DNA of 64,000 nucleotides from an uncultured Thermoplasmata archaeon (GTDB taxonomy: Archaea > Thermoplasmatota > Thermoplasmata > RBG-16-68-12). The position numbers and the translations under genes are program-made. The DNA is taken from assembly GCA_963768855.1 (NCBI GenBank), contig CAVYJM010000006.1, positions 896,001-960,000 on the forward strand. The letters run 5' to 3'. This document shows, piece after piece, positions 8,742 through 50,567 of the stretch. Numbering within the stretch: position 1 is the first letter of the stretch; every line of letters begins with the position of its first letter. The notes under the pieces are model-generated. The model ran no database searches and was not told the origin of the DNA. It saw nothing but the letters and a program-made list of their open reading frames with translations.

Positions 8742-8746
8742 GCGCC

Positions 8747-8822
8747 TACTACGGAATCCGTAGTATAAATGCTTGCCACTCCGGAGTCCAGGAGTCGCTT
8801 CAATACTACGGAGTGGGAAGTA
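8747..8822. promoter_or_regulatory. Divergent hxlR/yceI promoter with two TACT-N11-AGTA boxes (candidate operator)
   Basis: Perfect palindrome TACTACGG-AAT-CCGTAGTA at 8747-8765; second box TACTACGGAGTGGGAAGTA at 8804-8822; both beside AT-rich TATA-like stretches. Confidence 0.6.
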
Positions 8823-8850
8823 TATCACTATCGAATGAATAGCGAGGCGC

Positions 8851-9438: not shown

Positions 9439-9475
9439 CCCGAACCGCCTCTCCTCTCTTTCTTCCGAACCCGTC

Positions 9476-10444
9476 TCAGAACGGCCTGGTGGCCAGGGCG
9501 ACCCGGATCTTCTTGGGCCCTTGGCGTTCGTAGCCGATCTCCACGGTGTCCCCGATCCGCTTCCCGCGCAGCGCCTCCACGAGGTCCGAGACGTCGGCCA
9601 AGGGGCGACCGTCGAGCGAAGTGAGAACGTCCCCGACCTGGAGTCCCGCGGCCCCCGCGGGTCCGCCCTCGGACAGTTCCACGAGGAAGACGCCCTGGGA
9701 GACGGGCAGCTGGTAGTAGTGGGCGATCCGCCGGTCGACGTCGTAGCCCACGACACCCAGCCAGGCCCTCTGCGCCTTCCCTTGGGCGATGATCTGCGCC
9801 GCAACATCCCGGGCCACGTTGATGGGCACCGCGAAGCCAATGCCCTCCGCGTAGGGGATCGTCGCCGCGTTGAGGGCAATGACCCGCCCCCGCAGGTCGA
9901 CGAGCGGGCCTCCGCTGTTCCCCGGGTTCACGGCGGCATCCGTCTGGATGACCTGGAGGCCGTCCCCCTCCCCGAGCTGGATGCTCCGGTGGAGGGAGCT
10001 CACGACCCCGGAGGTCACGGTCGGTCCGCCGGGCAGCCCGAGGGGGTTGCCGATCGCGAGGACGGGCTGGCCCACCTTGAGCCGGTCCGAGTCGCCGAAC
10101 TCCGCGGGCGTGAGGTGGTCTCCGTCCACCTTGACGACCGCGACATCCGTGTCCTCATCCGCACCGAGTACCCTCCCGCCGAGGACCCGACCGTCCCCGA
10201 GTCCGACGAGGATCCGCTCCGCCCCGTCGACCGTGTGGGCGTTCGTCAGGATGCGTCCCTCCGTGTCCATCACGACCCCGGAACCGATGCCCCGCCGCGG
10301 GTACGGCCGGAAGGGCGGGTTGTGAAAGGCACCCGCGACGCTGATGCTCACCGTGCTGGCCCCTGCGCGCTCCACGGCCTGCGTGTAGGCCGTCTCGAGG
10401 TCCGCGATCATGGTCTCGGGCTGGACAAGGCGGGCCCGGGTCAT
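9476..10444 (-). CDS. HtrA/DegP-like trypsin protease with PDZ domain
   Basis: GSG, TNAH, DVAVVK, TDAAVNPGNSGGPL triad motifs; C-terminal PDZ. Confidence 0.9.
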   Translation of the reverse strand: MTRARLVQPETMIADLETAYTQAVERAGASTVSISVAGAFHNPPFRPYPRRGIGSGVVMDTEGRILTNAHTVDGAERILVGLGDGRVLGGRVLGADEDTDVAVVKVDGDHLTPAEFGDSDRLKVGQPVLAIGNPLGLPGGPTVTSGVVSSLHRSIQLGEGDGLQVIQTDAAVNPGNSGGPLVDLRGRVIALNAATIPYAEGIGFAVPINVARDVAAQIIAQGKAQRAWLGVVGYDVDRRIAHYYQLPVSQGVFLVELSEGGPAGAAGLQVGDVLTSLDGRPLADVSDLVEALRGKRIGDTVEIGYERQGPKKIRVALATRPF

Positions 10445-22458: not shown

Positions 22459-22462
22459 AAAG

Positions 22463-22535
22463 TGGACCGGGTGGGATTTGAACCCACGGCCTCTACCATG
22501 CCAAGATAGCGATCTTCCAGCTGATCTACCGGCCC
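22463..22535 (-). tRNA. tRNA-Ala(GGC), no intron
   Basis: GGGCCGG/CCGGTCC acceptor stem, CTATC-TTGGCAT-GGTAG anticodon arm, GTGGG-TTCAAAT-CCCAC T arm, 73 nt; CCTTAATA TATA box upstream. Confidence 0.95.
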
Positions 22536-38224: not shown

Positions 38225-38276
38225 GCCGCGCTGAGATGGAATGCATTTATCTACGCGCCCCGGATACTCCGCGCAA

Positions 38277-39398
38277 ATGCCCGAGGATTTCGTGGTCACC
38301 CCCTGGGAGGTCAAGGGCTCGATTGACTACGAACGCCTGATCACCCAGTTCGGCACGGAGCGCGTCACCCCGGAAATCCTGGAGCGGATCCGGCGCAAGG
38401 CCGGCGACCTGCACTTCATGCTCCGCCGCGGGATCTTCTACAGCCACCGCGACCTGAACTGGATCCTCGATGAGTCGGAGAAGGGCCACCCCTTCGCGCT
38501 GTACACGGGCCGCGGGCCGTCCAGCGGAATCCACATCGGACACATGCTCCCCTGGTTCTTCACCCGCTGGCTCCAGGAGAAGTTCAAGGCGACGCTCTAC
38601 TTCCAGATCACGGACGACGAGAAGTTCCTGTTCAAGGACTTCGACGACCTCGGTCAGGCCACGAAGGTCGGGTACGACAACATCCTCGACATCATCGCGA
38701 TGGGCTTCGACCCGAAGCTGACCCGGATCATCATCGACACGGAATACATCCACCATCTCTACCCGATTGCGGTGGAGGTCGCGAAGCGGATCACGTTCTC
38801 GACGACCCAGGCCGTCTTCGGGTTCACGAACTCGAACAACATCGGGGAGATCTTCTACACGAGCGTCCAGGCGGCGCCCGCGTTCCTTCCCAGCGTCCTC
38901 GCCAAGAAGAGTGTGCCCGTCCTGATCCCCTGCGGCATCGACCAGGACCCGCACTTCCGCGTCGCGCGGGACGTGGCTCCGAGGCTGGGCTTCCCGAAGC
39001 CCGCGCTGATCCACAACAAGCTCCTGATGAGTCTGCAGGGCCCGGACGCAAAGATGTCTGCATCGATTCCGGAGTCCAGCATCTTCACCACGGACTCCGA
39101 GAAGGCGGCCCAGAAGAAGATCCAGAACGCCTTCACCGGCGGCCGTGCGACCGTGGAGGAGCAACGTCGCCTCGGGGCGAACCCGACCATCTGCCCGATC
39201 TTCAACTTCTACGAGTACATCTTCGACCTGGACGACGCCCACCTCGCCGAGGTCGAGCGCACGTGCAAGTCGGGCGAACGGCTCTGCGGGGAATGCAAGC
39301 TGGAGTTGTGGGGCCTCGTGAAGCCCTTCCTGAAGAAGCACCACGAGGCGCGGGAGAAGGCGAAGGACCGCATCGAGGAGTTCGTTGTCCGCGACTGA
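38277..39398 (+). CDS. trpS: Tryptophanyl-tRNA synthetase
   Basis: YTGRGPS...HIGH, GIDQDPHFR, KMSAS. Confidence 0.97.
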   Translation: MPEDFVVTPWEVKGSIDYERLITQFGTERVTPEILERIRRKAGDLHFMLRRGIFYSHRDLNWILDESEKGHPFALYTGRGPSSGIHIGHMLPWFFTRWLQEKFKATLYFQITDDEKFLFKDFDDLGQATKVGYDNILDIIAMGFDPKLTRIIIDTEYIHHLYPIAVEVAKRITFSTTQAVFGFTNSNNIGEIFYTSVQAAPAFLPSVLAKKSVPVLIPCGIDQDPHFRVARDVAPRLGFPKPALIHNKLLMSLQGPDAKMSASIPESSIFTTDSEKAAQKKIQNAFTGGRATVEEQRRLGANPTICPIFNFYEYIFDLDDAHLAEVERTCKSGERLCGECKLELWGLVKPFLKKHHEAREKAKDRIEEFVVRD

Positions 39399-39404
39399 GC
39401 CGCT

Positions 39405-40112
39405 TCACGCCATGATCCGCGTGACCTTGAACCCGTTGTCGAAGACGAGAGCGTGGTAGTCCGTGTCGTGACGCGTGCCGCGCATCTTGACGATCCGGAG
39501 CTGGCGCTGCATCCCGAACTCGCCCTGCCTCGCGAGCCGCAGGTGCACGACGCCGTCCGCGAGATACTCCTCCTTGTGCTTCGCGAAGACCTGGCTCGCG
39601 GTTGCGCCGTCGTCGCTCGGCAGCTCTCCGAGGAGGAACACGGTGCACTCCAGCCCCCGGAGCCACCGGATCAGGGCGAACAGCTCCCGCCTCACATCCT
39701 GGAACTTGGCGAGGATCTCGAGCGCGTCGAGCGAGTCGATGACGAGGAGGCGGTAGTCGAGGGATTTCCTCAGGCCCTTGGCGTACAGCTTGAAGAGGTC
39801 CATCCAAGGCTGGTCGACCGGGCCCGTGATTTTCTTCCGGAGCGCGGCGAGATCGAGCACGCTCAGGTTCCCTTCGACATCCGCGAGGCGGTAGCCCAGG
39901 CCTTCCGTGTGATCGAGGAGACTGGCGCGGCTCTGCTCGAGGGAGACGTACAGCCCCTTCACCCCGGTCCGTGCGTTCGCATGGAGCACGTGGTACGTCA
40001 GGGAGGTTTTCATCGTCCCGGGCGCGCCAGAGACGAGCACGACGCTCCCTTCCGGGATTCCCTTCCCGAGGATCTCGTCCAGGCCGTCGACGTACGTCTT
40101 GATGAAGTTCAT
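39405..40112 (-). CDS. KaiC/RAD55-like ATPase (operon gene 10)
   Basis: GAPGTMKT P-loop, YVSLEQ, LVIDS, EYLADG, RQLRIVKMRG. Confidence 0.9.
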   Translation of the reverse strand: MNFIKTYVDGLDEILGKGIPEGSVVLVSGAPGTMKTSLTYHVLHANARTGVKGLYVSLEQSRASLLDHTEGLGYRLADVEGNLSVLDLAALRKKITGPVDQPWMDLFKLYAKGLRKSLDYRLLVIDSLDALEILAKFQDVRRELFALIRWLRGLECTVFLLGELPSDDGATASQVFAKHKEEYLADGVVHLRLARQGEFGMQRQLRIVKMRGTRHDTDYHALVFDNGFKVTRIMA

Positions 40113-41866
40113 GGTTGCTCCCCCGCGATCGCTTCGAGACGACGACGGATGGATTCGACCTGACCCTGGATCCGCTGTTTCTCTTGGGGCACGTCCACGA
40201 TTTCCGCCATGGCCACGAGATCGACCGCCGCGCGGTCCGCGAGTCGGGCAACGTCCCCGGGCCGCAGATCCTCCGGTCTCTTCCCCAGCTTTGACAGTTC
40301 GGACCGGAGGACGCCTTCGCCCGCCTCGCCGAGCTGTTCGACGAAGATGGAGCGGGCGCGCTCGAAGAGGGATTCCCGTTCGCTCAGGTCGCTCGCCACG
40401 GCGAAGAGCTCGTCCATCTCCTTGCCCTTCCAGTAGTCCGCCGCGGTCACCAGGATGCCCCGGTCCGCCTCGGATGCGCGGCGGGAGGGCCAGTCGCCCT
40501 CCGCGAGGTCTTGCGGGCTGCGCTCGGCGAACGCCTGCAGCGCGGCGCTGGCCGCGGTCGCCTGGACGCGGAGGCCCGAGCGGGCCGCATCGTCCGCGGC
40601 GGGGTCCCCGAGTTCGCGGACAGCTCGATCCAGAAAGCGCAGGAACGGGTCCGTGTCGCTGAGGGTGAGGTCCTCCCGGCGGAGGGAACGGGAACGGCAG
40701 AACGCCTCGAGGAGCTGACGGGCGCCCGGACCAAAGGACTGCGCGAGGACGGCCTCCATCTCCTCGGACGGGTCGGGCAGGGTCCACCAGGCCAATCGGT
40801 GCCCCTTCAGGTCCTCTTTCTCCCGGGTCGTCAGGCGGGATGCGGACACCGCGAGGCTGCACCGGGTGTCCCGGCACACGCTCCGGAGCCGCAGGAGGAT
40901 TGCCTGGGTCCGCGGCCACCCCGACATCATCGCGATGTCGGCCGTGTCGACGAGGACCGCGAGGCCGCCCGACGATCGGGTCCCGAATTCCGCGACCGTG
41001 CCGAGGGTGCGGGGAGCAGCGTGGGGGGTCGAAGAGATCGTGGCGAGCCCCGGGGGCGGATCCAGTGCCGTGATGGCAGGGCTTCCCCGGCCCACGACGA
41101 GCGTGGCCTGGCCGCGCCGGGCGGCCAGTCCCGCCAGGTGGAGCGCGTACTTGGGACGCGCCTCGTCCAGAACGACGGTGAGGCCCGGTTCGATTTCTCC
41201 CTGAACGGTCGGCCCCCGGCTCCGCCGCGGCCGCATTCCCGGGAACGGTTCGGAGTGGAACAGGACGTAGGCGAACAGGGCCACCGCTACCGGCGCCGCG
41301 ACGTTCGACCCCGCGGACTGGAGGATGCCGAGATCCTGGAACTCGAGGGCGTAGATCGGACCTCCGATGATGAGGGCGGCGACAGCGAACGCGAGCCAGA
41401 ACGAGTCGGCCGCGAACAGGGGGCTCACCATCCTCTCGTAGACGGGCTCCGCGAGGGCGACGCCCAGGCAGACGATCAGGAACGCGCCCAGGAGGTTCGG
41501 CTCATAGGCGTGCGCGACGGCCCAGTCCGCGCTCGGGGTGAGCACGACGACGATCGGGACGAGGGCCAGGAGTGCGAACACGGCGGGCCGGCGGCGCGGC
41601 ACGGTCTCTCCGTGGATTAGGGTGAGGACCAAGATCGCCGTGAGGGGATGGGCGAGGACCAGGGTCCACAGGACCGCCCCCTCCCACGCCGGCGCGAGGA
41701 AGCCTTCCGAGGTCCCGATGAAGGCCGCGCCGTTCACGATGAGCGTGAGGACGAGGGCCGCGAACGTGGCCTGCAGCCACGGGCGTCTCCCCCGGACGAC
41801 GACGAGCGCTAAGAGCCAGGCCTCCACCGCGAGGCCCGCGCCGACGGCGAGGCTGTATGCGATCAC
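40109..41866 (-). CDS. 7TM membrane protein with a DUF835-like degenerate ATPase domain and repeated helical modules (gene 9)
   Basis: Seven hydrophobic segments, then VVLDEARPK...AVLVDTADIAMMSGW; GGAGG SD and GTGA overlap. Confidence 0.7.
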   Translation of the reverse strand: MIAYSLAVGAGLAVEAWLLALVVVRGRRPWLQATFAALVLTLIVNGAAFIGTSEGFLAPAWEGAVLWTLVLAHPLTAILVLTLIHGETVPRRRPAVFALLALVPIVVVLTPSADWAVAHAYEPNLLGAFLIVCLGVALAEPVYERMVSPLFAADSFWLAFAVAALIIGGPIYALEFQDLGILQSAGSNVAAPVAVALFAYVLFHSEPFPGMRPRRSRGPTVQGEIEPGLTVVLDEARPKYALHLAGLAARRGQATLVVGRGSPAITALDPPPGLATISSTPHAAPRTLGTVAEFGTRSSGGLAVLVDTADIAMMSGWPRTQAILLRLRSVCRDTRCSLAVSASRLTTREKEDLKGHRLAWWTLPDPSEEMEAVLAQSFGPGARQLLEAFCRSRSLRREDLTLSDTDPFLRFLDRAVRELGDPAADDAARSGLRVQATAASAALQAFAERSPQDLAEGDWPSRRASEADRGILVTAADYWKGKEMDELFAVASDLSERESLFERARSIFVEQLGEAGEGVLRSELSKLGKRPEDLRPGDVARLADRAAVDLVAMAEIVDVPQEKQRIQGQVESIRRRLEAIAGEQP

Positions 41867-42393
41867 GCCGCGCCTCCTAGCGGGCGGACCTTGAGCACCG
41901 CAACGAGGTCCCGGGGCCGCCACTTCCAGCGGGCGCTCCCCGACTCCCGCATCTCCGGAGCCGAGTGGAACCCGGCCTTGCGGGCCTCCTCGTCCGTCAC
42001 GTCCGCGAGGAGCTTGCGCGTGCCGTCGACCACGAGCAGTCGGCCGAACGGCCGGCCCGTGTCGTACTTCGCCCAGACCACCTGGCCCACGAGGGGCAGC
42101 GAGACGTCGCCAATCGGGCGGATCATGAGCTCCGCGCCGCCCCGGAGGAGCCGGTCCCCTTCATCGAGGGTGAACGCCAGCTCCCCGTGAGGCCGCCGGC
42201 GGGGCAGCTCCCCGGACAGCGCGGCGCGGAACCCGAGGATCACGAGGAACGTGACGAGCCCGCCGAGCAGGAGGAGGTTCGTGAAGCCGATCTGGTAGAA
42301 GTTGCGGTGCTCCCAGAACCCGAAGACGAGGACGACGGAGAGGAGGAAGAGCAGGCCGGCGCGGGCGAGCAGGGTCACGAACCGTCGGGGCAT
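41863..42393 (-). CDS. Two-TM protein with ASCH/PUA-like domain (gene 8)
   Basis: Two TM helices, then LMIRP...VGQVV...LADVTDEEARKAGF. Confidence 0.65.
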   Translation of the reverse strand: MPRRFVTLLARAGLLFLLSVVLVFGFWEHRNFYQIGFTNLLLLGGLVTFLVILGFRAALSGELPRRRPHGELAFTLDEGDRLLRGGAELMIRPIGDVSLPLVGQVVWAKYDTGRPFGRLLVVDGTRKLLADVTDEEARKAGFHSAPEMRESGSARWKWRPRDLVAVLKVRPLGGAA

Positions 42394-42396
42394 GGC

Positions 42397-43140
42397 TCAC
42401 CCGATCGCTCGAGCGACCTCGAACCGGCCGTTCTCGAAGAGGAGCGTGTGGTCCTCGCTGTCCTGGTTCACGCTCCGCATCTTCGTGCACTGGATCCGGC
42501 GCTGGAACGACGTCTCCGTGACCGGGGCCATGCGCAGCCGCAAGATGCCGTCCGCGAGGAACTCCTCCTCGAGGACGTTCCCGCCCGCGCCGAGCCCCGG
42601 CTCCTCGGAGACGAGGAGGCTCGTGACCCCGAGGTCCCGGAGCCACTCGAAGAAGGCGAACGTCTCCGTCCGGCGGTCCTTGAACTCGAGGACGAGTTCG
42701 AGCGCGTCCCAGGAGTCGATCGCGAGGAGGCGGAAATCCTGGCGGCGCCGCAGATCGAGGATCTTCCCCTGGAGGACCGTGAGGAGGGCCTCGCCCTGCC
42801 GCAGGTCCGGACCCGCCATCTCGCCGACCTTCGCCGCCATTTCCTCGAGGTACTCGCGGCCGCGGCTCAGGTCGAGGATCGGCAGAGAATCGGAAACCTG
42901 CGTCGCGCGCAGTCCGAGCCCCGCGACGTGCTCGAGGAGGCTCGCGGCGCTCTGCTCCAGGGTCACGTAGAGCCCGGGCGTCCCCTGGAGGGCGTTGTGG
43001 TACAGGATGTAGTAGGCGAGGGAGGACTTCATCGTCCCGCTCGCGCCCCGCAGGAGGAGCACGTGCCCCTCGGGCACGCCGCCCCGGAGGACCTCCTCGT
43101 CGAAGCCTCGGATGAACGTCTTCACGGGGGTGCGGGCCAT
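42397..43140 (-). CDS. KaiC/RAD55-like ATPase (gene 7)
   Basis: GASGTMKS, YVTLEQ, LAIDS, EFLADG, RRIQCTKMRS. Confidence 0.9.
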   Translation of the reverse strand: MARTPVKTFIRGFDEEVLRGGVPEGHVLLLRGASGTMKSSLAYYILYHNALQGTPGLYVTLEQSAASLLEHVAGLGLRATQVSDSLPILDLSRGREYLEEMAAKVGEMAGPDLRQGEALLTVLQGKILDLRRRQDFRLLAIDSWDALELVLEFKDRRTETFAFFEWLRDLGVTSLLVSEEPGLGAGGNVLEEEFLADGILRLRMAPVTETSFQRRIQCTKMRSVNQDSEDHTLLFENGRFEVARAIG

Positions 43141-43148
43141 CGGACACC

Positions 43149-44858
43149 TCACGGGCTCATCGCGCGGGTCACCTTGAACCGCCCCTCGTCCAGGACCAGG
43201 GCCATGTAGCCCGTCTCATGCTTCGTGCCGCGCATCTTGACGACGCGCAGCCGGCGCTGTAGCTCCACATCGGAGACGAGGTGCTGCCGCAGATGGAGGA
43301 CGCCGTCCGCGAGGAAGTCCTCGTCCCAGCGGCCTTGCATCACGTGGCCCCCGATGACCCAGTCGGGCCGCTCCGTGACCACGAAGCTCGTGACGTCCAG
43401 GTCCCGGAGCCACTCGAACAGACGGAAGATCTCGCGGCGGCGGTCCTTGAACTTCGCCAAGACCTCGAGCGCCTCGAGGGAATCGATCACGACGAGGTCG
43501 AGCCCGCGCTGGGCCTTGACCGCCTGGAGGGCGTGCTGGAACGTCTCGACCCAGTCCTTCCGTTCCTCGAGCAGCCCCTTCGCCGCGCGGGGATCCATGA
43601 CGACGAGGGATCCGCTGGTGACGTGGAGGGGCAGGCCGATGGAGCCCATCTGCTTCAGCAGGCTCGACGTCCGCTCCTCGAAGCTCAGGTAGAGGCAGTG
43701 CAGGCCCGCGTGCGCGGCGTTCTGCGCGAGCACGGAGAAGCTCAACGAGGACTTCATCGTCCCCGGCGCCCCGGAGACGAGCACGATGTGGCCCCAGGGG
43801 ATGCCGCCGCCGAGGGTCTCGTCGAGCCCGTCGACAAACGTGCGGACCCGGGCCGGGTGGGCCTTCGTCTCCTCCGCCGGTTTCGGTGGAGGCGGAGCGG
43901 GCGGGGCGGACAGGTCGGCGAAGTCGGGGAAGTCCTCGTCCTCGGGAGGGGCCACGGTCGCGGGAGGAGTCACCGGCGCCACGGGCTCCGGCTCGGGTTC
44001 CGCCTCGGCGGGTTCCGGGGCCGCTTCCGGGGCGCGCGTGGCGAGCTTCTCGTACCGCACGCGGGCCGTCCGGTGGTCGGGCCGGAGCTCCAGGGCTTTC
44101 TGGAAGCTCTTCGTGGCGTCGACCGGACGGTCGAGGGCCTCGAGGACGATGCCTCGTTCGGACCAGGCCTCCGTCAGCGCGGGGTTCGCCTGGACCGTGC
44201 GGTCGAGCACCTCGAGCGCGCCCGGCAGGTCCTCCATGGACCGGAGCGTGCGGGCGAGCCCGAGCCATGCGCTGTCGTTCGGCGGATCGAGCTCGATGGC
44301 GCGGAGATAACCGACAGCGGCCTTGTAGGGCCTCTCGAGGCGCAGGTACGCCTCCCCCAGGAGGGTCCACGAGCGGGGATCGCCGTCCTCCTTCGCGATG
44401 GCCTTGAGGAGATGCTCGATGGCAGCGTCGAAGTGACGCTCGCGGAACGCTTGGGTCGCCGCCTCGAGCTGCCGCGTCACGGCCTGCTTGGCCTCGTTGC
44501 TCGGGGCCTTCCGGGGGCGATCGCTCGTGTAGGGTTTGAATCGCTGGCCCGAGGCGGATGCGCGCTGGGCAATCCGATCCTTGAGTGCAGCGACGGGATC
44601 GCTTCGAGCCGGGGTACCGGGGGCAGGGAGAGCCGCGGCCTCCTCGGGCCGCGGCTCCGGCGGTACCGTCTGTGCGCGGCGGGGCCTCTTGACAACCGCG
44701 CTGTAGACCTCGCTGCCCATGACACGCTGCAGGTGGACGGGCTGTTCCGGAGGAGGTGAAGCCGTCTCGGCCGGGAGCTCGTGGCCGCAGATCCGGCAGC
44801 GGGCCTGGCCCGGTTCGTTCGTCGAGTAGCAGGCAGGGCACCGCACGGTTGGCGTCAT
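43149..44858 (-). CDS. Double Zn-ribbon - TPR - KaiC/RAD55-like ATPase fusion (gene 6)
   Basis: CPAC...CRICG, about four TPR repeats, Pro/Glu linker, GAPGTMKS, VVIDS, RRLRVVKMRG. Confidence 0.9.
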   Translation of the reverse strand: MTPTVRCPACYSTNEPGQARCRICGHELPAETASPPPEQPVHLQRVMGSEVYSAVVKRPRRAQTVPPEPRPEEAAALPAPGTPARSDPVAALKDRIAQRASASGQRFKPYTSDRPRKAPSNEAKQAVTRQLEAATQAFRERHFDAAIEHLLKAIAKEDGDPRSWTLLGEAYLRLERPYKAAVGYLRAIELDPPNDSAWLGLARTLRSMEDLPGALEVLDRTVQANPALTEAWSERGIVLEALDRPVDATKSFQKALELRPDHRTARVRYEKLATRAPEAAPEPAEAEPEPEPVAPVTPPATVAPPEDEDFPDFADLSAPPAPPPPKPAEETKAHPARVRTFVDGLDETLGGGIPWGHIVLVSGAPGTMKSSLSFSVLAQNAAHAGLHCLYLSFEERTSSLLKQMGSIGLPLHVTSGSLVVMDPRAAKGLLEERKDWVETFQHALQAVKAQRGLDLVVIDSLEALEVLAKFKDRRREIFRLFEWLRDLDVTSFVVTERPDWVIGGHVMQGRWDEDFLADGVLHLRQHLVSDVELQRRLRVVKMRGTKHETGYMALVLDEGRFKVTRAMSP

Positions 44859-45580
44859 GGGCTGATCACCGAGGTGACCTGGAACCGTCCGTCCTCGAAC
44901 ACGAGGGCGTGGAACCCAGTCTTGTGGTTCGAGCCGCGCATCTTCACGACCTGCATGCGCCGCTGGATTTCGACGTCCGTAATGGGATGCATCTTGAGCT
45001 CGATGATGCCGTCCGCGAGGAACGTCTCGTCCTTCCGGGGCGGGGCGGACTCGAGCCCGAAGAAGCTGGCCTCGGGGGACGCCTCCGTCAGGACGAGCGT
45101 CGTGGCGCCGAAGTCCCGTAGCCACTCGAAGAAGTGGAACAGCTCGGTCCGGCGGTCCTCGAACTTCGCGAGAACCTCGAGCGCCTCTAGGGAGTCGAGG
45201 ACGACGAGGTCGACGCCATCGATCTCCTTCGTCGTCGTCAGGCTCCGCCGCAGGAACTCAATCCAGGGCTTCGTCGCGCTCTTGCCGATCTCCTTCTGGA
45301 TCGTGCCCACGTCGAGGAGATGCAAGTCCCCACGCACGGCCTCCGTGTTGAAGCCCATCGAGTCCATCTGTGCGAGGAGGCTGCGACGCGTCTGCTCTAG
45401 GGTGACGTACAGCCCCTTCGCACCTCGCTTCTCCACGTTGTTCTGGAGGATCGCATAGCTCAGCGTCGATTTCATCGTGCCCGGAAGCCCGGAGACGAGG
45501 ATGACGTGGCCTGCGGGCAGGCCGCCGCCGAGCGCCTCGTCCAAGCCATCCACGAACGTCGGGATCTTCTTGATTTCCAT
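44855..45580 (-). CDS. KaiC/RAD55-like ATPase (gene 5)
   Basis: GLPGTMKS, YVTLEQ, VVLDS, TFLADG, RRMQVVKMRG. Confidence 0.9.
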   Translation of the reverse strand: MEIKKIPTFVDGLDEALGGGLPAGHVILVSGLPGTMKSTLSYAILQNNVEKRGAKGLYVTLEQTRRSLLAQMDSMGFNTEAVRGDLHLLDVGTIQKEIGKSATKPWIEFLRRSLTTTKEIDGVDLVVLDSLEALEVLAKFEDRRTELFHFFEWLRDFGATTLVLTEASPEASFFGLESAPPRKDETFLADGIIELKMHPITDVEIQRRMQVVKMRGSNHKTGFHALVFEDGRFQVTSVISP

Positions 45581-45611
45581 GTTCACACGTCTCCTGGGGT
45601 CCAACCTTGTG

Positions 45612-45995
45612 TCATGCCATAGCCTCCTGGTGGAGGATCACGTCCACCAGCCGGGCGGTTTTTTCCATGGCCATCAGCACGAGCCCGAGGTTTGCGTCTT
45701 TGTAGACTAAGGCGACGAGGAGGGCCTCCTCCCCCGCGCCGAGGCTCAGGAGCTTGCCCTCATCCGACTCGATGATGGCGCGCTCGAAGTGGCCCTGGGA
45801 GAGTTGGATCGTGGCCATCTCCGAAGTGCCGACGATCGCGGCCGTCATCGCGGCTACGATCCTCGGGTCCACGCCGTCCGGGAGCGTGTGGGTGATCACG
45901 AGCCCGTCCCTCCGCACGACCGCGGCGGCCTTGATGTCCGTGACGTGCGCGAGGTCGTCCATCGCGGCCTCGAGACGCTGCCACACGTCGGTCAC
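45612..45995 (-). CDS. Roadblock/LC7 (MglB-like) protein (gene 4)
   Basis: AAAVVRRDGLVI...AAMTAAI...ANLGLV. Confidence 0.9.
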   Translation of the reverse strand: MTDVWQRLEAAMDDLAHVTDIKAAAVVRRDGLVITHTLPDGVDPRIVAAMTAAIVGTSEMATIQLSQGHFERAIIESDEGKLLSLGAGEEALLVALVYKDANLGLVLMAMEKTARLVDVILHQEAMA

Positions 45996-46387
45996 GTCCC
46001 GACCTCCTGCGCGGCCGTTTCCATGAGGTCGGCGATCGACTGGACGGCCTTGCCCACGCTGAGGAGGACGAGGCCCATGTTGGCGTCCGTCCGGACCATC
46101 GTGATGAGGATGCCTTCCTCGCCTGCGCCCGTGGCGAGCATCTTGACCTTCTCGCTGTCCACAATCGACTGGAAGAACGGGCCGAACCCCATCTCCCCGG
46201 CAGCCATCTCCGAGGTGCCGACGATTGCGGCGGCCATGGCGGCGATCCGCTTCGGGTCCATGCTCTTCGGGAGGAGGTGGGCGATCAGCAAGCCGTCGCG
46301 CCGCGCCAAGGCGACGGCGACGACGTCCGGGATGCGGCGGAGCTCCTGGAGGACGCCGATGAGGCGGGCGTGGAGCGAGTCGACCAT
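45992..46387 (-). CDS. Roadblock/LC7 (MglB-like) protein (gene 3)
   Basis: ALARRDGLLI...AAMAAAI...ANMGLV. Confidence 0.9.
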   Translation of the reverse strand: MVDSLHARLIGVLQELRRIPDVVAVALARRDGLLIAHLLPKSMDPKRIAAMAAAIVGTSEMAAGEMGFGPFFQSIVDSEKVKMLATGAGEEGILITMVRTDANMGLVLLSVGKAVQSIADLMETAAQEVGT

Positions 46388-46388
46388 C

Positions 46389-47564
46389 TCACCTCACCCC
46401 GATGATCATCTCGGCGAGGATCAGGAGCGCGTCGCGCACGCCCGAGTTCGCCGTCGCCACGGTGGCCAAGATGGGCGTCTCGTCGGGCAGCTCCATCTTC
46501 CGTGCAATCACGTCCGGCTTCAGGGCGCCCGGGAGGTCCGACTTGTTGGCCAAGACAACGTAAGGGATCCGTGGCCCGATCAGCTCGAGCATGTACTTCG
46601 CGCGCTCGAAGTCCTCCGGCCGAGTCGCATCGACCACGAGCAGGACGCCGCTGACCTCCCGCGCGAAGATCCGGAAGATGAACTCAAAGCGTTCCTGGCC
46701 GGGCGTACCGAAGACCTCGGCCTCGATGCCCGTGATGTTCACGCTGCCGTAGTCGAAGGCGACGGTTGTCCCCATGCGGTCGATGCTGATCGACTTCTCG
46801 CAGAGGACCCTGACCACCGTCGACTTGCCCGCATTGAAAGGACCCGTGACGAGGATCCGCGGGAAGTACACCGTCACACCGACGAGATCCTTGAAGGTGT
46901 ATGGAATCCAATTCGTGCGGATCCCGTCTTCCTGCATCTGCGAGATGCGCATCGAGTTGCGGAGGATTCCTCCGCGCATGGAGGACTGGAACTCGATGAT
47001 GAAGTCCGACATCGCGCGGATCGTGCCGAGGTCGCGCTCGTGGTAGGTCCAGTTGATGAAGAGGAAGCAGGTGACGCTGTGGGCGGCTTCCGAGGCCTCG
47101 ATGATCCGTCGCCACTCCGAGAGCACCGCTTCCTTGGGGAATCGGTCCGAGAGGAACTCCATGGAGTCGATGACGATCCGGGCGGGCCGCTCCGCCTCGA
47201 TGGCGTCGACGATGACATCCGTGATGCCGATTAGGCTGCCGATGTCCTTGACGCTGTACTTCTCCATGCTCGGGACGAGGAGCTGGCTTGAGATCGCGTC
47301 GACGATGACGAGGTTCTCCTGCGAGAACTTGCCGAAGCGGCCGAGCTCCGCGCGAGCGAGGCTCGGCGCCCGGAAGAAGTCCACATACAGGGTCGTCTCG
47401 CCCGTCTTGGCGCCCTCGACCGCGAAGTTCTCCGCGAAGAGCCGCTTCTCCGTCGGCTTGTCACTGAACAGGAGGAGCGTGGATGGCCGAGGGAATCCGC
47501 CATTGAGTCGCTCGTCGAGGATCTGGATCCCGGTCTTGACCCGAGTCGTGTCGGGATCGCCCAT
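46389..47564 (-). CDS. Degenerate KaiC/RAD55 domain fused to an MglA/CvnD-like small GTPase (gene 2)
   Basis: N-terminal KTGIQILD...IVIDS with the P-loop lost; C-terminal GPFNAGKS, TTVAFDYG, FGTPGQERF, NKSD. Confidence 0.9.
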   Translation of the reverse strand: MGDPDTTRVKTGIQILDERLNGGFPRPSTLLLFSDKPTEKRLFAENFAVEGAKTGETTLYVDFFRAPSLARAELGRFGKFSQENLVIVDAISSQLLVPSMEKYSVKDIGSLIGITDVIVDAIEAERPARIVIDSMEFLSDRFPKEAVLSEWRRIIEASEAAHSVTCFLFINWTYHERDLGTIRAMSDFIIEFQSSMRGGILRNSMRISQMQEDGIRTNWIPYTFKDLVGVTVYFPRILVTGPFNAGKSTVVRVLCEKSISIDRMGTTVAFDYGSVNITGIEAEVFGTPGQERFEFIFRIFAREVSGVLLVVDATRPEDFERAKYMLELIGPRIPYVVLANKSDLPGALKPDVIARKMELPDETPILATVATANSGVRDALLILAEMIIGVR

Positions 47565-48229
47565 CAGAGGCCTCCCGTGACCACCGGCATCTGGACGAAC
47601 GGGTGCCAGGTGCTGTCGACCTGGAATCCCCTCATGTGGTGCACGCGCACCTCGTGGTCCATTGTGTCGGTGAAGCGCATCTCCACGACGCCGTCGACGA
47701 GGGACCGCAGGAGGTTCATCGTCATCTGCTCGTGGACGCCTTCGTGGACGGCGTACATGATGAAGCCCATGTTCATCTTCGCGCGGCTCGTGACGATCTG
47801 GAAGAACTTGGCAATCGCTTGCGTGGAGTTGTGAAGGAACAGGGTCGAGATCGTGTAGAAGTAGATCCGGACGGGCGTCCCGAGCTCCTGGGCCGCCTTG
47901 CTCATCGCCATCCCGATGCCCTCGAGGTTGCTGAAGCTCGACACGAGGAACGTCTTCTTGCCGGCGGGAACCTCGGGCCGCTCCGAGGCGGTCGCGCTGT
48001 AGCAGTCGACGAAGGCGAAGCTCCGGCCCTCGTACTGGTCCAGGTCGAGCTTGAGGGCCTTGGCCCGCGCGCGGATCTCGGACGGGTGGAGGTCGAGCGT
48101 CACGAAGACGACGCGCTCGCCCGCCCGCAGCGCCTCCCGCACCTGGGCGATCATGTACTCGAACTTGCCCACGCCGGGCGGGCCGCCGAGTAGGATCGCG
48201 TAGTTCGTCGGGAACCGCGGGTCACCCAT
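47564..48229 (-). CDS. KaiC/RAD55-like ATPase domain protein (gene 1)
   Basis: GPPGVGK, FVTLD, FVDCYS, LVDGVVEM, VHHMRG. Confidence 0.85.
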   Translation of the reverse strand: MGDPRFPTNYAILLGGPPGVGKFEYMIAQVREALRAGERVVFVTLDLHPSEIRARAKALKLDLDQYEGRSFAFVDCYSATASERPEVPAGKKTFLVSSFSNLEGIGMAMSKAAQELGTPVRIYFYTISTLFLHNSTQAIAKFFQIVTSRAKMNMGFIMYAVHEGVHEQMTMNLLRSLVDGVVEMRFTDTMDHEVRVHHMRGFQVDSTWHPFVQMPVVTGGL

Positions 48230-48309
48230 GGCCGAGCCCCCTGCGGGCTCGCGCTCGTAGCCGACGGCGAGAGACCTGGTTCACTGTCCGTCTCGATGCC
48301 CCGATTTCG

Positions 48310-48317
48310 CTTATAAG
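48310..48317 (-). promoter_or_regulatory. TATA box, candidate promoter of the KaiC/Roadblock operon
   Basis: CTTATAAG about 80 nt upstream of the first ATG. Confidence 0.5.
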
Positions 48318-48429
48318 GGCCGTGCCGTAGTTCTCACCCTTGAGAGTGGCACGGGCCCCGACCCCGCCGACTCGGGGGGATGCAGGGAGGATTGAAGAGC
48401 GGGAAAGGGATTAGGCACCTGGAGGAGAG

Positions 48430-48982
48430 ATGCTGTCCAATCGTCCCCCTGGGAAGGGCCTGCTTTCGGAGCCGTTCTCGTGGATCATCTTGGGTGCGGC
48501 CCTTGTATTCGCGTCGAGCATTTTGTCCGGCGCCCTCGGCATTGTCTATGTGTTCGCGGAATTCAATCCAGCCGCGACCTTTCCCGGGGACCTCTTTCTG
48601 GCCGTCTCCGTAGGGCTCGTTCCTTCTCTTGGTGGGTCTCGCCCGAGCAGTCCATCGCCCCTTCTTCCCCGCCACGGAGCCCCTAGCCCATGAGGGCCAA
48701 GGCGCGGGGGTCGCCGGCCTCGCCCAACCCGCTAACCCGTACCGCATCGCGCTCCTGGGCGCCGTGCTCGCCCTGATCGGAGGGCTTGCGGGCATCTCGG
48801 CGTGCCTCGCGCGGTATCTCTTCCCGCCCGCATGGGCCTACACCGGTATCCAGGGGTACCTCCAGACATGGGCCCTGGTTGCGCTCCTGACCGGCGCGGT
48901 CGCTGCGGTTGGCTCCCTGCTCGCCTTCGTCGGCGTGGGACTCATGATTCGGTATGCCTCGCGCCGAGCAGAGCGTGTCTAA
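48430..48982 (+). pseudogene. Multi-pass membrane protein split by a one-base frameshift near 48620
   Basis: Hydrophobic ORF 48430-48693 continues in the adjacent frame (LLVGLARAVHR...IALLGAVLALIGG); span 553 nt = 3n+1; GGAGG SD. Confidence 0.55.
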
Positions 48983-49040
48983 GGCGGTCCGAGGGCGCGG
49001 CGGGAAAAGCATATACGAAGTGCGCCCATCCGCCGACCTG

Positions 49041-50567
49041 ATGCCCCGGGATGTGGCGGCGGAGCTGAGCTACCTCGAGAAGCGGGTCCTGCTCACCCTG
49101 AAGGAGCTGAAGCGGGCCTCCCCCGAGGAGATCCGCTCGAAGGGGAAGTTCAAAGAGCTCGTCGAGGTGATGAACGCCGCTTCCTGGCTCCAGGCGAAAG
49201 GCCTCGTGACGATGAAGGAGCGGGTCGTGCGCACGTACAGGCTCACCCGAGCGGAGCTGGCGCGGAAGCCGCTGCCCGAGCGCAGGGCGCTCAAAGCCCT
49301 CCTGAAGGCGGGAGGCCGGATGCCCGTCTCGAAGGTCCAGGTCGCGTGCAAGTTCGACGAGTCGGAACTCGCGATCGCCCTCGGATGGGTGCGGCGGAAG
49401 GGCTGGGCCCAGGTCGAGAAGGGGCCCGGGGGCAGCTTCCTCGTCGCGACGGATGCGGGCCGCGCGGCCTCCGAGGGCCGGGCGCCCGACGAGGAGCTCC
49501 TTACGAAGATGGCCAAGGAGGAGATCGCGGAGGACGCCGCGGACCCGAGGCTCCTGAAGGACCTGAAGTCCCGCCAGGATCTCGTGCGGGAGCGGGAGTC
49601 CGTGCGGCGGGAGATTTCCCTCACGCCCGCGGGGGAGAAGGTGCTGGCGGCCGGGATCGAGCTGAAGCCCGAGGCCACGGTTGTGACGACGGACCTCCTC
49701 CGTGACGGGAAGTGGAAGTCGGTCGACTTCCGTCGCTACGACACGCGGGCCTTCGCCCCCACTGTGTGGCCGGGGAAGCGCCACGTGCTCGGCGCGTACC
49801 TGGAGAAGATTCGACGCATCTTCCTCGAGATGGGCTTCACGGAGATTGACGGGGATTACGTCCAGAGCGCGTTCTGGAACTACGACGCGCTCTTCCAGCC
49901 CCAGGACCATCCGGCGCGGGACCAGCTCGACAGCTTCTATCTCTCCAAGCCGCGGACGGTCCCGCTCCCCGAGGACCGCGTCGTGCGGCGCGTCGCGGAC
50001 GCGCATGAGACGGGCGGCGGCACGGGCAGCAAGGGGTGGCGGTACGCCTGGGACCGAGGCGAGGCCGAGCGAGCGCTCCTCCGGTCGCATACGACCGCGA
50101 TCACGATTCAGTGGCTTTCCGAGCACCCGAAGCCGCCGCAGAAGGCGTTCATCATCGGCCGCAACTTCCGGCGGGACGCGATCGACTGGAAACACCTGCC
50201 GGAGTTCCACCAGGTCGAGGGCGTCGTGATGGAAGAAGGCGCGAACCTCGCGCAGCTCATCGGCACGATCGAGGAGTTCTATCGGAGGCTCGGCTTCCTC
50301 GGCTCGAAGTTCCGCCCGGGGTACTTCCCGTACACGGAGCCGAGCATGGAGCCCGAGGTCCAGCTGCCCGATGGCCGGTGGATGGAGCTCGGCGGGAGCG
50401 GGATCTTCCGGCCCGAGGTGACGAAGCCGCTGGGCATCGAGACGCCCGTGCTTGCCTGGGGCCTCGGGCTGGAGCGGGTCATCATGGCGCTCGAGGGGAT
50501 CTCGGACATCCGGGAGCTGTACCTGAGCGACTTGGATTGGCTCCGGAACCACCGCGCCCTCGTCTGA
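49041..50567 (+). CDS. pheS: Phenylalanyl-tRNA synthetase alpha subunit
   Basis: WNYDALFQPQDHPARD, motif 2 FRRDAIDWKHLPEFHQVEG, motif 3 AWGLGLER. Confidence 0.97.
   Translation: MPRDVAAELSYLEKRVLLTLKELKRASPEEIRSKGKFKELVEVMNAASWLQAKGLVTMKERVVRTYRLTRAELARKPLPERRALKALLKAGGRMPVSKVQVACKFDESELAIALGWVRRKGWAQVEKGPGGSFLVATDAGRAASEGRAPDEELLTKMAKEEIAEDAADPRLLKDLKSRQDLVRERESVRREISLTPAGEKVLAAGIELKPEATVVTTDLLRDGKWKSVDFRRYDTRAFAPTVWPGKRHVLGAYLEKIRRIFLEMGFTEIDGDYVQSAFWNYDALFQPQDHPARDQLDSFYLSKPRTVPLPEDRVVRRVADAHETGGGTGSKGWRYAWDRGEAERALLRSHTTAITIQWLSEHPKPPQKAFIIGRNFRRDAIDWKHLPEFHQVEGVVMEEGANLAQLIGTIEEFYRRLGFLGSKFRPGYFPYTEPSMEPEVQLPDGRWMELGGSGIFRPEVTKPLGIETPVLAWGLGLERVIMALEGISDIRELYLSDLDWLRNHRALV

Follow-up and report, generated by a model that had tools for sequence, protein, structure and literature searches.

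A conserved ten-gene operon of KaiC-like, Roadblock and small GTPase proteins in an uncultivated Thermoplasmata archaeon, a candidate for kinase-less archaeal signalling

The genome of an uncultivated wetland Thermoplasmata archaeon contains ten minus-strand genes (G1–G10, positions 39405–48229) whose ends overlap or almost abut. Analysis of the 64,000-nucleotide stretch of DNA in which these genes lie (the window) supports the view that they are a conserved unit of signalling-type parts whose translation is coupled. The whole is probably best explained as a kinase-free switch comprising a receptor, a KaiC hub and a G-protein, encoded by a real, vertically inherited operon that arose from two older modules in this uncultivated Thermoplasmata lineage. 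In it, an old archaeal G-protein switch is combined with a membrane receptor and four KaiC-like ATPases, and the operon is thus a promising object for studying how archaea may signal in the absence of kinases.

The features of the operon are listed in Table 1. All ten open reading frames are free of internal stop codons and have GC3 values of 0.88–0.95. A preliminary description of this DNA reported ten co-oriented genes joined by TGATG, GTGA or ATGA overlaps or by gaps of 1–31 nt, and the junctions are as claimed: TGATG, a 1-nt overlap, at G1/G2; GTGA at G3/G4, G6/G7 and G8/G9; ATGA at G5/G6 and G9/G10; and gaps of 1 nt at G2/G3, 3 nt at G7/G8 and 31 nt at G4/G5, the border between the two modules (A and B) described below. 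The start positions of G6 (44858, giving the ATGA overlap), G9 (41866) and G10 (40112) were revised. The operon is flanked by a pheS-type gene on one side and trpS/tyrS-type genes on the other, all of them housekeeping genes on the opposite strand. The TATA-box-like element upstream of G1 is a candidate archaeal promoter of the operon.

Table 1. Features of the ten-gene operon (positions are those of the window)
Feature	Position	Strand	Details
TATA-box-like TTATAA	48311..48316	(-)	82 nt upstream of G1 ATG; read from sequence
G1, KaiC-like/DUF7504 protein	47564..48229	(-)	221 aa; PF06745 E 4.5e-14, DUF7504 E 4.5e-12
G2, inactivated KaiC domain and small GTPase	46389..47564	(-)	PF06745 E 1.4e-17; Arf 4.1e-13, Ras, Roc
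G2 KaiC domain	about 46869-47564	(-)	aa 1-232
G2 GTPase domain, MglA group 2-5-type	about 46389-46868	(-)	aa 233-391
G3, Roadblock/LC7 (MglB-like)	45992..46387	(-)	131 aa; PF03259 E 9.5e-12
G4, second Roadblock/LC7 paralogue	45612..45995	(-)	127 aa; PF03259 E 1.8e-14
G5, single-domain KaiC-like ATPase	44855..45580	(-)	PF06745 E 9.3e-38; Walker A GLPGTMKS, Walker B LVVLDS, 'LEQ'
G6, Zn-ribbon (CxxC...CxxC), ~4 TPRs, Pro/Glu-rich linker and KaiC-like ATPase	43149..44858	(-)	
G7, KaiC-like ATPase	42397..43152	(-)	PF06745 E 1.4e-31; GASGTMKS
G8, two TM helices and ASCH-fold domain	41863..42393	(-)	structure model, pLDDT 78
G9, 7TM receptor-like, DUF835-type inactive KaiC/RecA fold and helical C-terminal domain	40109..41866	(-)	structure model; 7TM aa 1-207, DUF835-type aa about 225-364, helical C-terminal aa 366-581
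G10, KaiC-like ATPase	39405..40112	(-)	PF06745 E 2.7e-39; GAPGTMKT; ATGA-coupled to G9

The Pfam content of the ten genes consists of six KaiC domains, two Roadblocks and one small GTPase, together with TPRs and a weakly matched zinc ribbon in G6. PF06745 (KaiC) is matched above its gathering score in G1, the N-terminal half of G2, G5, the C-terminal half of G6, G7 and G10 (52.8–135.4 bits, cut-off 26.6), and the KaiC-fold domains number seven when the DUF835-type domain of G9 is counted. Across the ten genes, Pfam found no domain of KaiA or KaiB, nor of a histidine kinase, a pilin or an archaellin. These results agree with the preliminary description as regards the six KaiC-like domains, the two Roadblocks, the TPR/Zn-ribbon protein and the listed absences; the seventh KaiC fold is an addition to it. 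The small GTPase that it named is also present, with Arf, Ras and Roc matches, but as a domain of G2 and not as a separate gene. The 7TM and TM-ASCH proteins have no Pfam match in the window copies; structure models confirm seven TM helices in the former and two TM helices with an ASCH fold in the latter.

Conservation of gene order, which the preliminary description had proposed to map, is extensive. The order Phe< 1 2 R R 5 6 7 8 9 10 Trp< is found in every long-enough contig of three families (f1, f4 and f6), with a head-to-tail arrangement and an A/B gap of 31 nt (or 7 nt). Dozens of contigs, drawn from several families, share this order, which puts the arrangement far beyond chance. The operon is nevertheless modular: G1–G2 and the Roadblocks make up module A, and G5–G10 make up module B. 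Separately conserved sub-blocks are G1–G2 with or without Roadblocks, G5–G6, and G7–G10, which occur elsewhere alone, inverted, or beside other partners, for example type IV pilus assembly genes or genes for a PAS histidine kinase, a V4R protein or a Ras-like GTPase that stands alone. The block of KaiC, G8-like, 7TM-DUF835 and KaiC genes persists at 20–24% G9 identity, and G10 follows the 7TM-DUF835 gene even in 22%-identity homologues. The same three proteins that begin the operon also form a core of DUF7504-type KaiC, KaiC::GTPase and Roadblock in Methanoperedens, in Archaeoglobus, in the Asgard groups Jordarchaeia/Lokiarchaeia and in other Thermoplasmatota, with E values of 1e-92 to 1e-53 for full-length homologues of the KaiC::GTPase fusion. 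In Methanoperedens, the core has the same order and encodes proteins of 234, 390 and 122 aa. In contrast to the operon, these core loci do not contain genes 5–10; they adjoin genes for YhbY, for a thioredoxin-like protein and a KaiC, or for type IV pilus assembly. The earlier characterization of the operon as a self-contained switch is not upheld, as it consists of juxtaposed, separate modules that are found apart or with other partners.

The first two genes encode KaiC-like proteins with altered active sites. The P-loop of G1 (GPPGVGKF) contains a Lys that is not followed by Ser/Thr, and the Walker B Asp is missing. In an alignment of 21 orthologues, G16, G19, G21 and K22 are invariant and the residue after the Lys is always F, L or M; S100, N101, E103, H133 and N134 are also invariant. 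In P-loop NTPases, the Walker A Ser/Thr has been described as a strictly conserved Mg ligand (bioRxiv 10.1101/2022.06.23.497301). G1 is probably a nucleotide-binding pseudo-ATPase and a partner of G2. The P-loop site of the G2 KaiC domain reads SDKPTEKR where the equivalent in PH0186 is GGTGTGKT, and this dead P-loop has been replaced by a motif, SxxPxEKRxFAE, that is kept throughout the order. G2 was detected in 53 of 301 Thermoplasmatota genomes and is single-copy in all but one of these.

The GTPase domain of G2 (Arf/Ras/Roc matches span residues 236–384) contains the motifs G1 (GPFNAGKST), switch I GTT (MGTTVAFDYG), G3 (GTPGQE) and G4 (NKSD). This combination of GTPGQ, a Thr that replaces the intrinsic Arg finger next to the Thr of the G2 motif, and canonical G1 and G4 motifs is the one published for MglA groups 2–5 (Wuichet and Sogaard-Andersen 2014, PMC4316618). 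By these motifs the GTPase is MglA/CvnD-like, in line with the comparison that the preliminary description drew with MglA-type GTPase modules and conservons. When the PDB is searched with sequence alone, Arl8, Arl3 and Rab rank first, not MglA.

The complex modelling that had been suggested as a check was run for G1 and G2 and predicts that the two proteins bind, with an ipSAE of 0.77 (runs 0.79, 0.77 and 0.68) compared with 0.00 for the best control. Of 80 solved complexes, 58 attain this ipSAE mark, as do two of 110 mismatched pairs. Contact agreement between the runs is at least 86% and the partner pLDDT is at least 84. The predicted interface places the former active site of G2 (residues 34–41, 63–69 and 134–141) against S100, N101, E103 and residues 134–154 of G1. 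This result may stem from resemblance to solved KaiC/RecA rings and not from specific pairing.

The two Roadblocks score 44.9 and 53.6 bits against PF03259 (cut-off 23). The PDB matches of G3 are the Asgard RB 7f8m (E 1.4e-13), CvnB5 (3leq, 4.7e-6) and MglB (3t1s, 5e-4), and those of G4 are 9jue (E 3.6e-17) and CvnB5 (7.3e-6). Both proteins, encoded directly after G2, carry the 'DG' pair (RRDGL). Most loci of f1, f4 and f7g7 have a pair of Roadblock genes after G2, and a single one is seen in f6 (L014, L053) and in L049–L051. Within the order, the GTPase motifs are intact at every locus with an adjacent Roadblock, and GTPGQE is present in the window G2 and in every orthologue of this kind; at every locus with decayed GTPase motifs (f2, f3, f5 and f7g8), the Roadblock is missing. 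This contrast is also found inside a single family, between f7g7 and f7g8. G3 and G4 would most likely form a dimeric platform that sets the GTP/GDP state of the GTPase as a GAP and/or GEF. At f48 loci, GTPase motifs can stay intact without an adjacent Roadblock.

Module A resembles MglA/MglB of Myxococcus xanthus and Thermus thermophilus in its GTPGQ G3 motif, the Thr that replaces the intrinsic Arg finger and the adjacent 'DG' Roadblocks. Unlike bacterial MglA, G2 does not contain the insertion between GTPase motifs G1 and G2, as reported for archaeal members (PMC4316618). The systems also differ in that the GTPase here is fused to a dead KaiC and accompanied by a second KaiC-like partner and two Roadblock paralogues, with no RomR or RomX. 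Archaeal MglA group 4 has been reported to have no conserved neighbours (PMC4316618). The operon can also be compared with the actinobacterial conservon (CvnA–D) or mfp operon, in which a membrane sensor, a Roadblock and an MglA-type GTPase are likewise encoded together, and CvnB5 (3leq) matches both Roadblocks with E values of about 5e-6. As neither the conservon nor G1–G10 contains a response regulator, the GTPase is the presumed output. In contrast to the conservon, the operon encodes neither a CvnA histidine kinase nor CvnC/DUF742, and has in their stead seven domains of KaiC fold along with the 7TM-DUF835 receptor-like protein and the TM-ASCH protein; HisKA, HATPase and DUF742 were matched by Pfam in none of the ten proteins. 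The term archaeal conservon analogue, used in the preliminary description, is apt, but the operon is not a conservon, as CvnA and CvnC are absent.

Four of the proteins encoded by module B (G5, G6, G7 and G10) share three motifs. The first, GxxGTMK[ST], differs from the canonical Walker A GxxxxGK[ST] by a Met at the second Gly; the others are hhhhDS, compared with hhhhD for Walker B, and LEQ or FEE at the catalytic Glu. In G6, the KaiC motifs are GAPGTMKS and 'FEE', and the domain matches are PF06745 (E 2.2e-36), TPR_2 (1.5e-16) and a weak zinc ribbon (3.8e-3). The N-terminal part of G6 is variable, with TPRs in f1 and f7 that were not detected in f4, f5 and f6. These four paralogous KaiC-like proteins are probably active ATPases, although the Met in their Walker A motif could impair them.

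The remaining two proteins are predicted membrane proteins. No Pfam family, ASCH (PF04266) included, matches G8 at E 0.01, and its atlas similarity is only 0.81. Structurally, the C-terminal 100 aa have the fold of ASCH proteins such as the E. coli ac4C amidohydrolase YqfB (Foldseek 9kyf_A, E 4e-7, TMt 0.87, rmsd 2.3) and an ASCH protein (3s9x, 1.9e-6); the 17 best Foldseek matches also include Zymomonas ZmASCH (5y6c, 5y6b, 5gus, 5guq) and the DUF984 protein EF3133. G8 differs from these proteins in being membrane-tethered by two highly conserved TM helices and in its lack of a sequence-level Pfam match. The family is seen only in Thermoplasmata, with the TM part being best conserved and the outer loop invariant (GFWEHRxFYQxGF). 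The charge distribution, read by the positive-inside rule, points to a cytoplasmic ASCH domain.

The G9 model (pLDDT 85, pTM 0.71) has seven helices in residues 3–204, which superpose on the 7TM of a class C GPCR (mGlu2) with a Z of 15.6 (rmsd 3.2, 196 aa), where chance helical bundles reach ~14. Residues 154–364 superpose on KaiC 8dba_C (Z 13.0, rmsd 2.9, 140 aa), and the DUF835-type alpha/beta domain contains no GxxxxGK motif. PF05763 (DUF835) is matched by six of the 26 aligned family members (best E 2.5e-17), but not by the window copy, and is also annotated in the precomputed Pfam entries of two distant homologues. One family member matches HisKA_7TM (E 1.4e-3). When profiles of the G9 family and the KaiC paralogues were compared, no significant match emerged. 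DUF835 has been classed as an inactivated KaiC (PMC5847659), and the same article describes, after Makarova, Galperin and Koonin 2017, archaeal signalling hubs of KaiC-like ATPases that include inactivated KaiC (iKaiC), DUF835 and MEDS. The operon resembles such hubs in that single-domain KaiC-like ATPases, which are expanded in the genome (about 24 KaiC-superfamily ORFs), occur together with inactivated KaiC domains, with Zn-ribbon/TPR fusions and with a DUF835-type output domain in a membrane protein, as well as in a weak Death-like (NitrOD2) match in G9 (E 0.05 at 476–540). Neither a link of a small GTPase and Roadblock to the KaiC hub nor the ten-gene array was found in the articles consulted; Makarova 2017 may mention them. 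New here are the fusion of an MglA group 2–5-type GTPase to a P-loop-destroyed KaiC, the loss of motifs in G1, and the DUF835-type fold in a 7TM protein.

Beyond the observed gene structure, domains, motifs, conservation and modularity, we infer the following flow of signal. A membrane or extracellular cue would change the 7TM/DUF835 receptor, whose cytoplasmic output would be the DUF835-type inactive KaiC fold and the helical domain. This change may affect how the KaiC-like ATPases of module B assemble or turn over ATP. The module would act as a membrane-anchored KaiC hub made up of four such ATPases, the 7TM receptor and the 2TM-ASCH protein. Contacts between KaiC folds could then pass the change to the G1–G2 pair, a putative RecA-type heteromeric scaffold in module A, the G-protein switch. 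The output would be the tethered GTPase with its Roadblocks, the Roadblock dimer setting the GTP/GDP state of G2. The earlier statement that KaiC rings replace the sensor kinase goes further than the sequences do, as three of the seven KaiC-fold domains (G1, G2 N-terminal and G9 middle) are without catalytic motifs, making scaffolding as likely as ring ATPase action.

Because the modules occur apart in other lineages, functional coupling of A and B is argued from their adjacency and translational coupling. A rival reading, which has a modest chance of being correct, is that the two modules are independent and lie side by side, each with its own inputs and with no signal between them. Each is found alone: f2 and f3 have G1–G2 only, f7 has only genes 5–6 of module B, and Methanoperedens and Lokiarchaeia have the G1-like, KaiC::GTPase and Roadblock core of module A without module B. 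Furthermore, module B is inverted relative to A in f5, and in L097 a complete block of genes 5–10 occurs with a V4R protein replacing G2 and the Roadblocks. Against this, the order and the short A/B gap are kept in three families, the divergent modules of f5 are still neighbours, and both modules are made of KaiC-fold proteins, which typically hetero-oligomerise. Somewhat better placed, while still doubtful, is the proposal that the ten genes chiefly serve a type IV pilus-like or archaellum-like machine as accessory or regulatory components, comparable to ArlH plus MglA/MglB, and not a general sensory pathway. They would control how a surface filament is assembled or retracted, or its polarity. 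In four loci of f17 and f48, the two Thermoplasmatota families of other classes in which the pilus link is seen, genes for T2SSE, T2SSF, T2SSF, [Roadblock], G2-like and G1-like proteins lie on one strand; the G2-like gene, nearly always single-copy, directly follows the T2SSE and two T2SSF genes. Roadblock genes are reported to be frequent in archaeal type IV pilus loci, which KaiC-like genes are also known to neighbour (PMC4858521), and MglA/MglB direct the type IV pili of Myxococcus (PMC4316618). The window genome has one T2SSE/T2SSF locus, but it is about 210 kb from the operon, and pilin, T2SSE and T2SSF are absent from the operon and the adjoining genes. No protein reaches the cut-off of the ArlH model (NF052589; best 58.7 bits versus 215), with RadB and KaiC cut-offs likewise not reached, and the core has other neighbours in Methanoperedens and Lokiarchaeia. 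This proposal also overlaps with the kinase-free switch, as it names an output and not another mechanism. From the synteny of module A, a type IV pilus-like assembly machine is the best lead for the output target. A fuller scheme, in which a kinase-free 7TM receptor acts through the KaiC hub and heteromers on a Roadblock-regulated MglA-type GTPase with pilus-like machine control as its ancestral output, is tentative and less likely than not. If true, it would add a third logic to prokaryotic signalling, next to those of two-component and Ser/Thr kinase systems, and offer a tractable entry to the regulation of archaeal small GTPases.

Two further readings are very improbable. An anti-virus defence island of KaiC/RecA-like ATPases and TPR proteins is suggested by a weak match of G6 to PADLOC mad8 (E 6.5e-4), of which no stretch passes alone; PADLOC matches none of the other nine proteins, Pfam finds no nuclease or other effector domain in G1–G10, and the site between aminoacyl-tRNA synthetase genes is fixed across families with host-like GC3. 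As for a KaiC-based timing oscillator akin to the cyanobacterial clock, the KaiC-family domains do give weak matches to circadian KaiC models, but the single-domain KaiCs fall far under the equivalog cut-offs (TIGR02655/NF006799; best 115.7 bits versus 408), and the lack of KaiA and KaiB among the ten genes also argues against it.

The ten-gene operon at 39405-48229 is real, as the preliminary description had proposed: all ten minus-strand open reading frames (ORFs) are open throughout, with no internal stops and a GC3 of 0.88-0.95, and their junctions overlap or nearly abut (from G1 to G10: TGATG, a gap of 1 nt, GTGA, a gap of 31 nt, ATGA, GTGA, a gap of 3 nt, GTGA, and ATGA). The flanking genes, both housekeeping genes, are listed in the table below along with a TTATAA element that is plausibly an archaeal TATA box. 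The scan for bacterial-type promoters and terminators is uninformative for an archaeal host.

Features adjoining the operon (window coordinates)
Feature	Coordinates	Strand	Setting	Basis
Class I Trp/Tyr-type tRNA synthetase	38241-39398	plus	convergent with G10	
PheRS alpha subunit (pheS)	48954-50567	plus	divergent from G1	
Candidate archaeal TATA box TTATAA	48311-48316		82 nt 5' of the G1 ATG	sequence reading

The spacer between G1 and pheS (48230-48953) is approximately 720 nt long, as compared to 43-188 nt in relatives (loci L013 and L022). Its plus strand carries short, hydrophobic-looking ORFs such as 48629-48982 (117 aa), and the minus-strand ORF at 48334-48795 (153 aa) matches no Pfam family and lacks a counterpart in relatives. 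This spacer may represent an insertion or contain a small membrane gene specific to the lineage. The sole RNA gene detected in the window, tRNA-Ala (GGC), lies on the minus strand at 22462-22535. The genome containing the window (as C6:896001-960000) is 2.87 Mb and 93.6% complete; its named relatives are metagenome-assembled genomes from soil, aquifer, and sediment that are labelled Thermoplasmata, 'Methanobacteriota' or 'Methanomassiliicoccales', and the sequencing runs with part of the operon region are all DNA runs, from wetland and freshwater sediment.

The domain list drawn up earlier was confirmed by Pfam and by structure models of G8 and G9, with one further KaiC-fold domain, in G9. Pfam places KaiC (PF06745) in G1, G5, G7, G10, the N-terminal half of G2, and the C-terminal half of G6, which also contains TPRs and a weak zinc ribbon. 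Residues 236-384 of G2 match Arf/Ras/Roc, and both G3 and G4 match Robl_LC7, while G8 and G9 have no Pfam match. The model of G8 (pLDDT 78) contains a pair of TM helices followed by a C-terminal domain; the best 17 Foldseek matches of this domain are ASCH and related proteins, the top one being E. coli YqfB (E 4e-7, TMt 0.87). The G8 family is found only in Thermoplasmata, and conservation within it is strongest in the TM hairpin, which contains the invariant loop GFWEHRxFYQxGF. The model of G9 (pLDDT 85, pTM 0.71) has three parts: seven TM helices, a five-stranded alpha/beta domain, and a C-terminal helical domain. The alpha/beta domain superimposes on KaiC 8dba_C (Z 13.0, rmsd 2.9, 140 aa), and DUF835, classified as an inactivated KaiC by Galperin et al. 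(PMC5847659), is matched by 6 of 26 G9 family members and by two distant homologues. The whole G9 model has no Foldseek match at E <= 1e-3, the G9 family profile does not match the KaiC paralogues significantly (probability 0.9%, E 0.061), and G9 matches the Death-like NitrOD2 weakly (E 0.05). Together, the modelled fold and the DUF835 matches indicate that the alpha/beta part of G9 is the seventh KaiC-fold domain in the operon.

The KaiC-like proteins of the operon differ in their catalytic motifs. G5, G6, G7, and G10 are paralogues (42-49% identity), each with GxxGTMK[ST] at Walker A, hhhhDS at Walker B, and an acidic LEQ or FEE. The Met-containing P-loop occurs in 11 of approximately 24 KaiC-superfamily ORFs in the genome, the remainder being canonical (GxGK[ST]), and is therefore a subfamily trait rather than decay. 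Genomic ORFs with the variant GxxG[TSA]MK[ST], in which Met replaces the second Gly, include C6:534773-535666, C6:286029-286763, C6:734648-735406, and a second cluster, of three ORFs, at C10:12584-17956. The P-loop of G1 is GPPGVGKF, and among 21 orthologues the Gly and Lys are invariant, the Lys is followed in every case by F, L or M, and the Walker B Asp is absent. In the KaiC domain of G2, SDKPTEKR occupies the position of GGTGTGKT in Pyrococcus PH0186, and both this dead P-loop (SxxPxEKRxFAE) and a DS are conserved in all loci of the order. The GTPase domain of G2 carries GPFNAGKST, GTT, GTPGQE, and NKSD, and the Roadblocks G3 and G4 both carry RRDGL. MglA groups 2-5 are marked by GTPGQ and a Thr in place of the Arg finger, with MglB partners that have an Asp-Gly pair (PMC4316618). 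The closest solved relatives of G3 and G4 are Asgard Roadblocks, followed by the conservon protein CvnB5 and then MglB.

Comparison of 61 loci from the same taxonomic order demonstrates that the gene order is conserved in three families, the point on which the preliminary description could have been refuted. Every long enough contig of families f1, f4, and f6 has the full order, Phe< 1 2 R R 5 6 7 8 9 10 Trp< (R, Roadblock; flanks, the two synthetase genes). In family f7, genus g7 has 1 2 R R, an additional stand-alone GTPase, and then 5 6, while genus g8 has 1 2 5 6. In f5, genes 10 to 5 are inverted beside 1 2 and the Roadblock is absent, and f2 and f3 retain 1 2 only, next to a PAS-HisKA kinase (L068), a Ras-like stand-alone GTPase (L065), or a response regulator and HATPase protein (L061). 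The block of KaiC, G8-like, 7TM-DUF835, and KaiC genes is retained in metagenome contigs at G9 identities of 20-24%, and locus L097 (147-8510) contains the entire block of genes 5-10. Upstream of that block are a DUF7504-type KaiC and then a 256-aa V4R protein, the latter in the place of G2 and the Roadblocks; in L094, the gene before the G2-like one encodes a V4R protein of 172 aa (8915-9433). Both loci belong to other lineages, and V4R domains bind small molecules. This variation divides the operon into module A (G1-G4, a probable G-protein switch) and, joined to it, module B (G5-G10, a probable membrane KaiC hub).

The loci also inform on the fused GTPase. At every locus of the order with an adjacent Roadblock, GTT, GTPGQE, and NKxD are kept, and at every locus with decayed motifs (e.g., GVPGKE with NRQQ, or GPSGSGVST) the Roadblock is absent. 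Family f7 provides a contrast within one family, the loci otherwise not being independent owing to kinship. The stricter proposal that Roadblock adjacency always tracks GTPase integrity is ruled out by f48, where GIPGQE is kept without an adjacent Roadblock, leaving a one-way rule: decayed GTPase motifs never occur with a neighbouring Roadblock. At L068, the 1358-aa PAS/GAF-HisKA-HATPase kinase (5193-9269) overlaps the start of the G1 orthologue (9266-9985) in a family whose GTPase is decayed, suggesting that G1 and G2 can be coupled to a histidine kinase of the classical type. At L065, where the fused GTPase is decayed, the stand-alone small GTPase (11154-11699; Ras family, E 2.4e-32) lies just after the G2 orthologue, and in f7 a stand-alone Arf-like GTPase (L015:5883-6449, E 4.3e-11) follows the Roadblocks. 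These stand-alone GTPases may act as substitutes for the fused G domain or as duplicates of it.

The G1-G2 pair was also probed by complex prediction, with both proteins supplied as alignments, in three runs with three controls. The ipSAE was 0.77 (runs 0.79, 0.77, and 0.68) versus 0.00 for the best control; the predicted interface is the usual RecA/KaiC neighbour interface, so this pass may partly reflect likeness to solved rings. Solved complexes attain the ipSAE mark used in 58 of 80 cases, and mismatched pairs in 2 of 110. Contact agreement between runs was at least 86%, and partner pLDDT at least 84. On the G2 side the predicted interface is the former nucleotide site (34-41, 63-69, 134-141, 170-173, and 194-201), and on the G1 side it comprises 80-84, 97-118, and 134-154, including the invariant S100, N101, and E103. 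The prediction supports, but does not show, binding of G1 to G2.

Module A extends well beyond the order. The KaiC::GTPase fusion is present in 53 of 301 sampled Thermoplasmatota genomes, including other classes, and is single-copy in all but one. Full-length fusion homologues (E 1e-92 to 1e-53) carry the labels Methanoperedens, Archaeoglobus veneficus, Jordarchaeia, Freyarchaeum, and Lokiarchaeia; the Atlas search for G2 separates no phyla, as 'Methanobacteriota' is also the NCBI label of the present genomes. The Methanoperedens contig has the order DUF7504-type KaiC, fusion, Roadblock, YhbY, and the Lokiarchaeia contig thioredoxin-like protein, KaiC, fusion, Roadblock, DUF7504-type KaiC. In four loci from two families of other Thermoplasmatota classes (f17 and f48; L084, L085, L086, and L093), genes for T2SSE (PilB3_C), T2SSF, T2SSF, a Roadblock (in f17), a G2-like, and a G1-like protein lie on one strand. 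The GTPase motifs of the G2-like protein are intact there, but with PPFIGKE in the distant G1-like protein neither KaiC fold is active. The one T2SSE/T2SSF locus of the present genome (C6:724047-728693) is approximately 210 kb from the operon.

The operon fits a kinase-free switch. G1 and G2 would form a pseudo-ATPase scaffold bearing an MglA-type GTPase, for which the Roadblock dimer would be the likely GAP/GEF platform. Module B would supply a membrane receptor with a KaiC-fold output and an ASCH-domain protein acting as co-sensor or effector, and its four probable ATPases could translate the state of the receptor into one of assembly or phosphorylation. How module B would act on module A, which way the signal runs, and what the output is are all inferred. 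For the output, the most promising pointer is the position of the orthologous module beside pilus-assembly genes in other classes, which agrees with MglA/MglB biology and with archaeal type IV pilus loci reported to contain KaiC-like and Roadblock genes (PMC4858521).

An accessory role for the operon in pilus function, which overlaps with the switch, is somewhat improbable, and it is a little less probable still that modules A and B are independent of each other. Roles in anti-virus defence or in a clock are both very improbable, as PADLOC returned one marginal match only and the model cut-off for KaiC, like those for ArlH, RadA, and RadB, is reached by no operon protein.

As a kinase-free switch the operon would resemble MglA/MglB and conservons in its working, yet with neither CvnA nor CvnC it is not itself a conservon; it would be an analogue, as the preliminary description inferred. 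The operon belongs among the proposed archaeal KaiC hubs. KaiC-like ATPases are the proposed, though barely tested, main signalling hubs of archaea. The parts of the operon are of known kinds in an apparently new combination: the literature consulted on archaeal KaiC with Roadblock, GTPase or MglA, in which Makarova et al. (2017, mBio) is represented through citing papers, yielded no published description of the KaiC::GTPase-Roadblock core or the ten-gene form. Archaeal group 4 MglA had no conserved gene neighbours according to Wuichet and Sogaard-Andersen (PMC4316618). Archaea, including Asgard, have many small GTPases and Roadblocks whose partners usually cannot be read from the genome, and Asgard GTPases are rarely in operons with Roadblocks (Tran et al., PMC10933270). 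The operon ties one GTPase to named partners, namely two Roadblocks, a putative membrane receptor, four probable ATPases, and a KaiC-like pseudo-ATPase with which it is predicted to form a complex, making the pairings testable with recombinant proteins. Furthermore, recurrence of the core across archaeal phyla, in some adjoining pilus assembly genes, provides a concrete hypothesis for the output and for the relationship between archaeal systems and polarity switches of the MglA/MglB type. Outside the operon, the genome contains three tandem small-GTPase-like ORFs (C7:106360-108254) and six more Roadblock-like ORFs, so GTPase and Roadblock parts are generally expanded in this organism.
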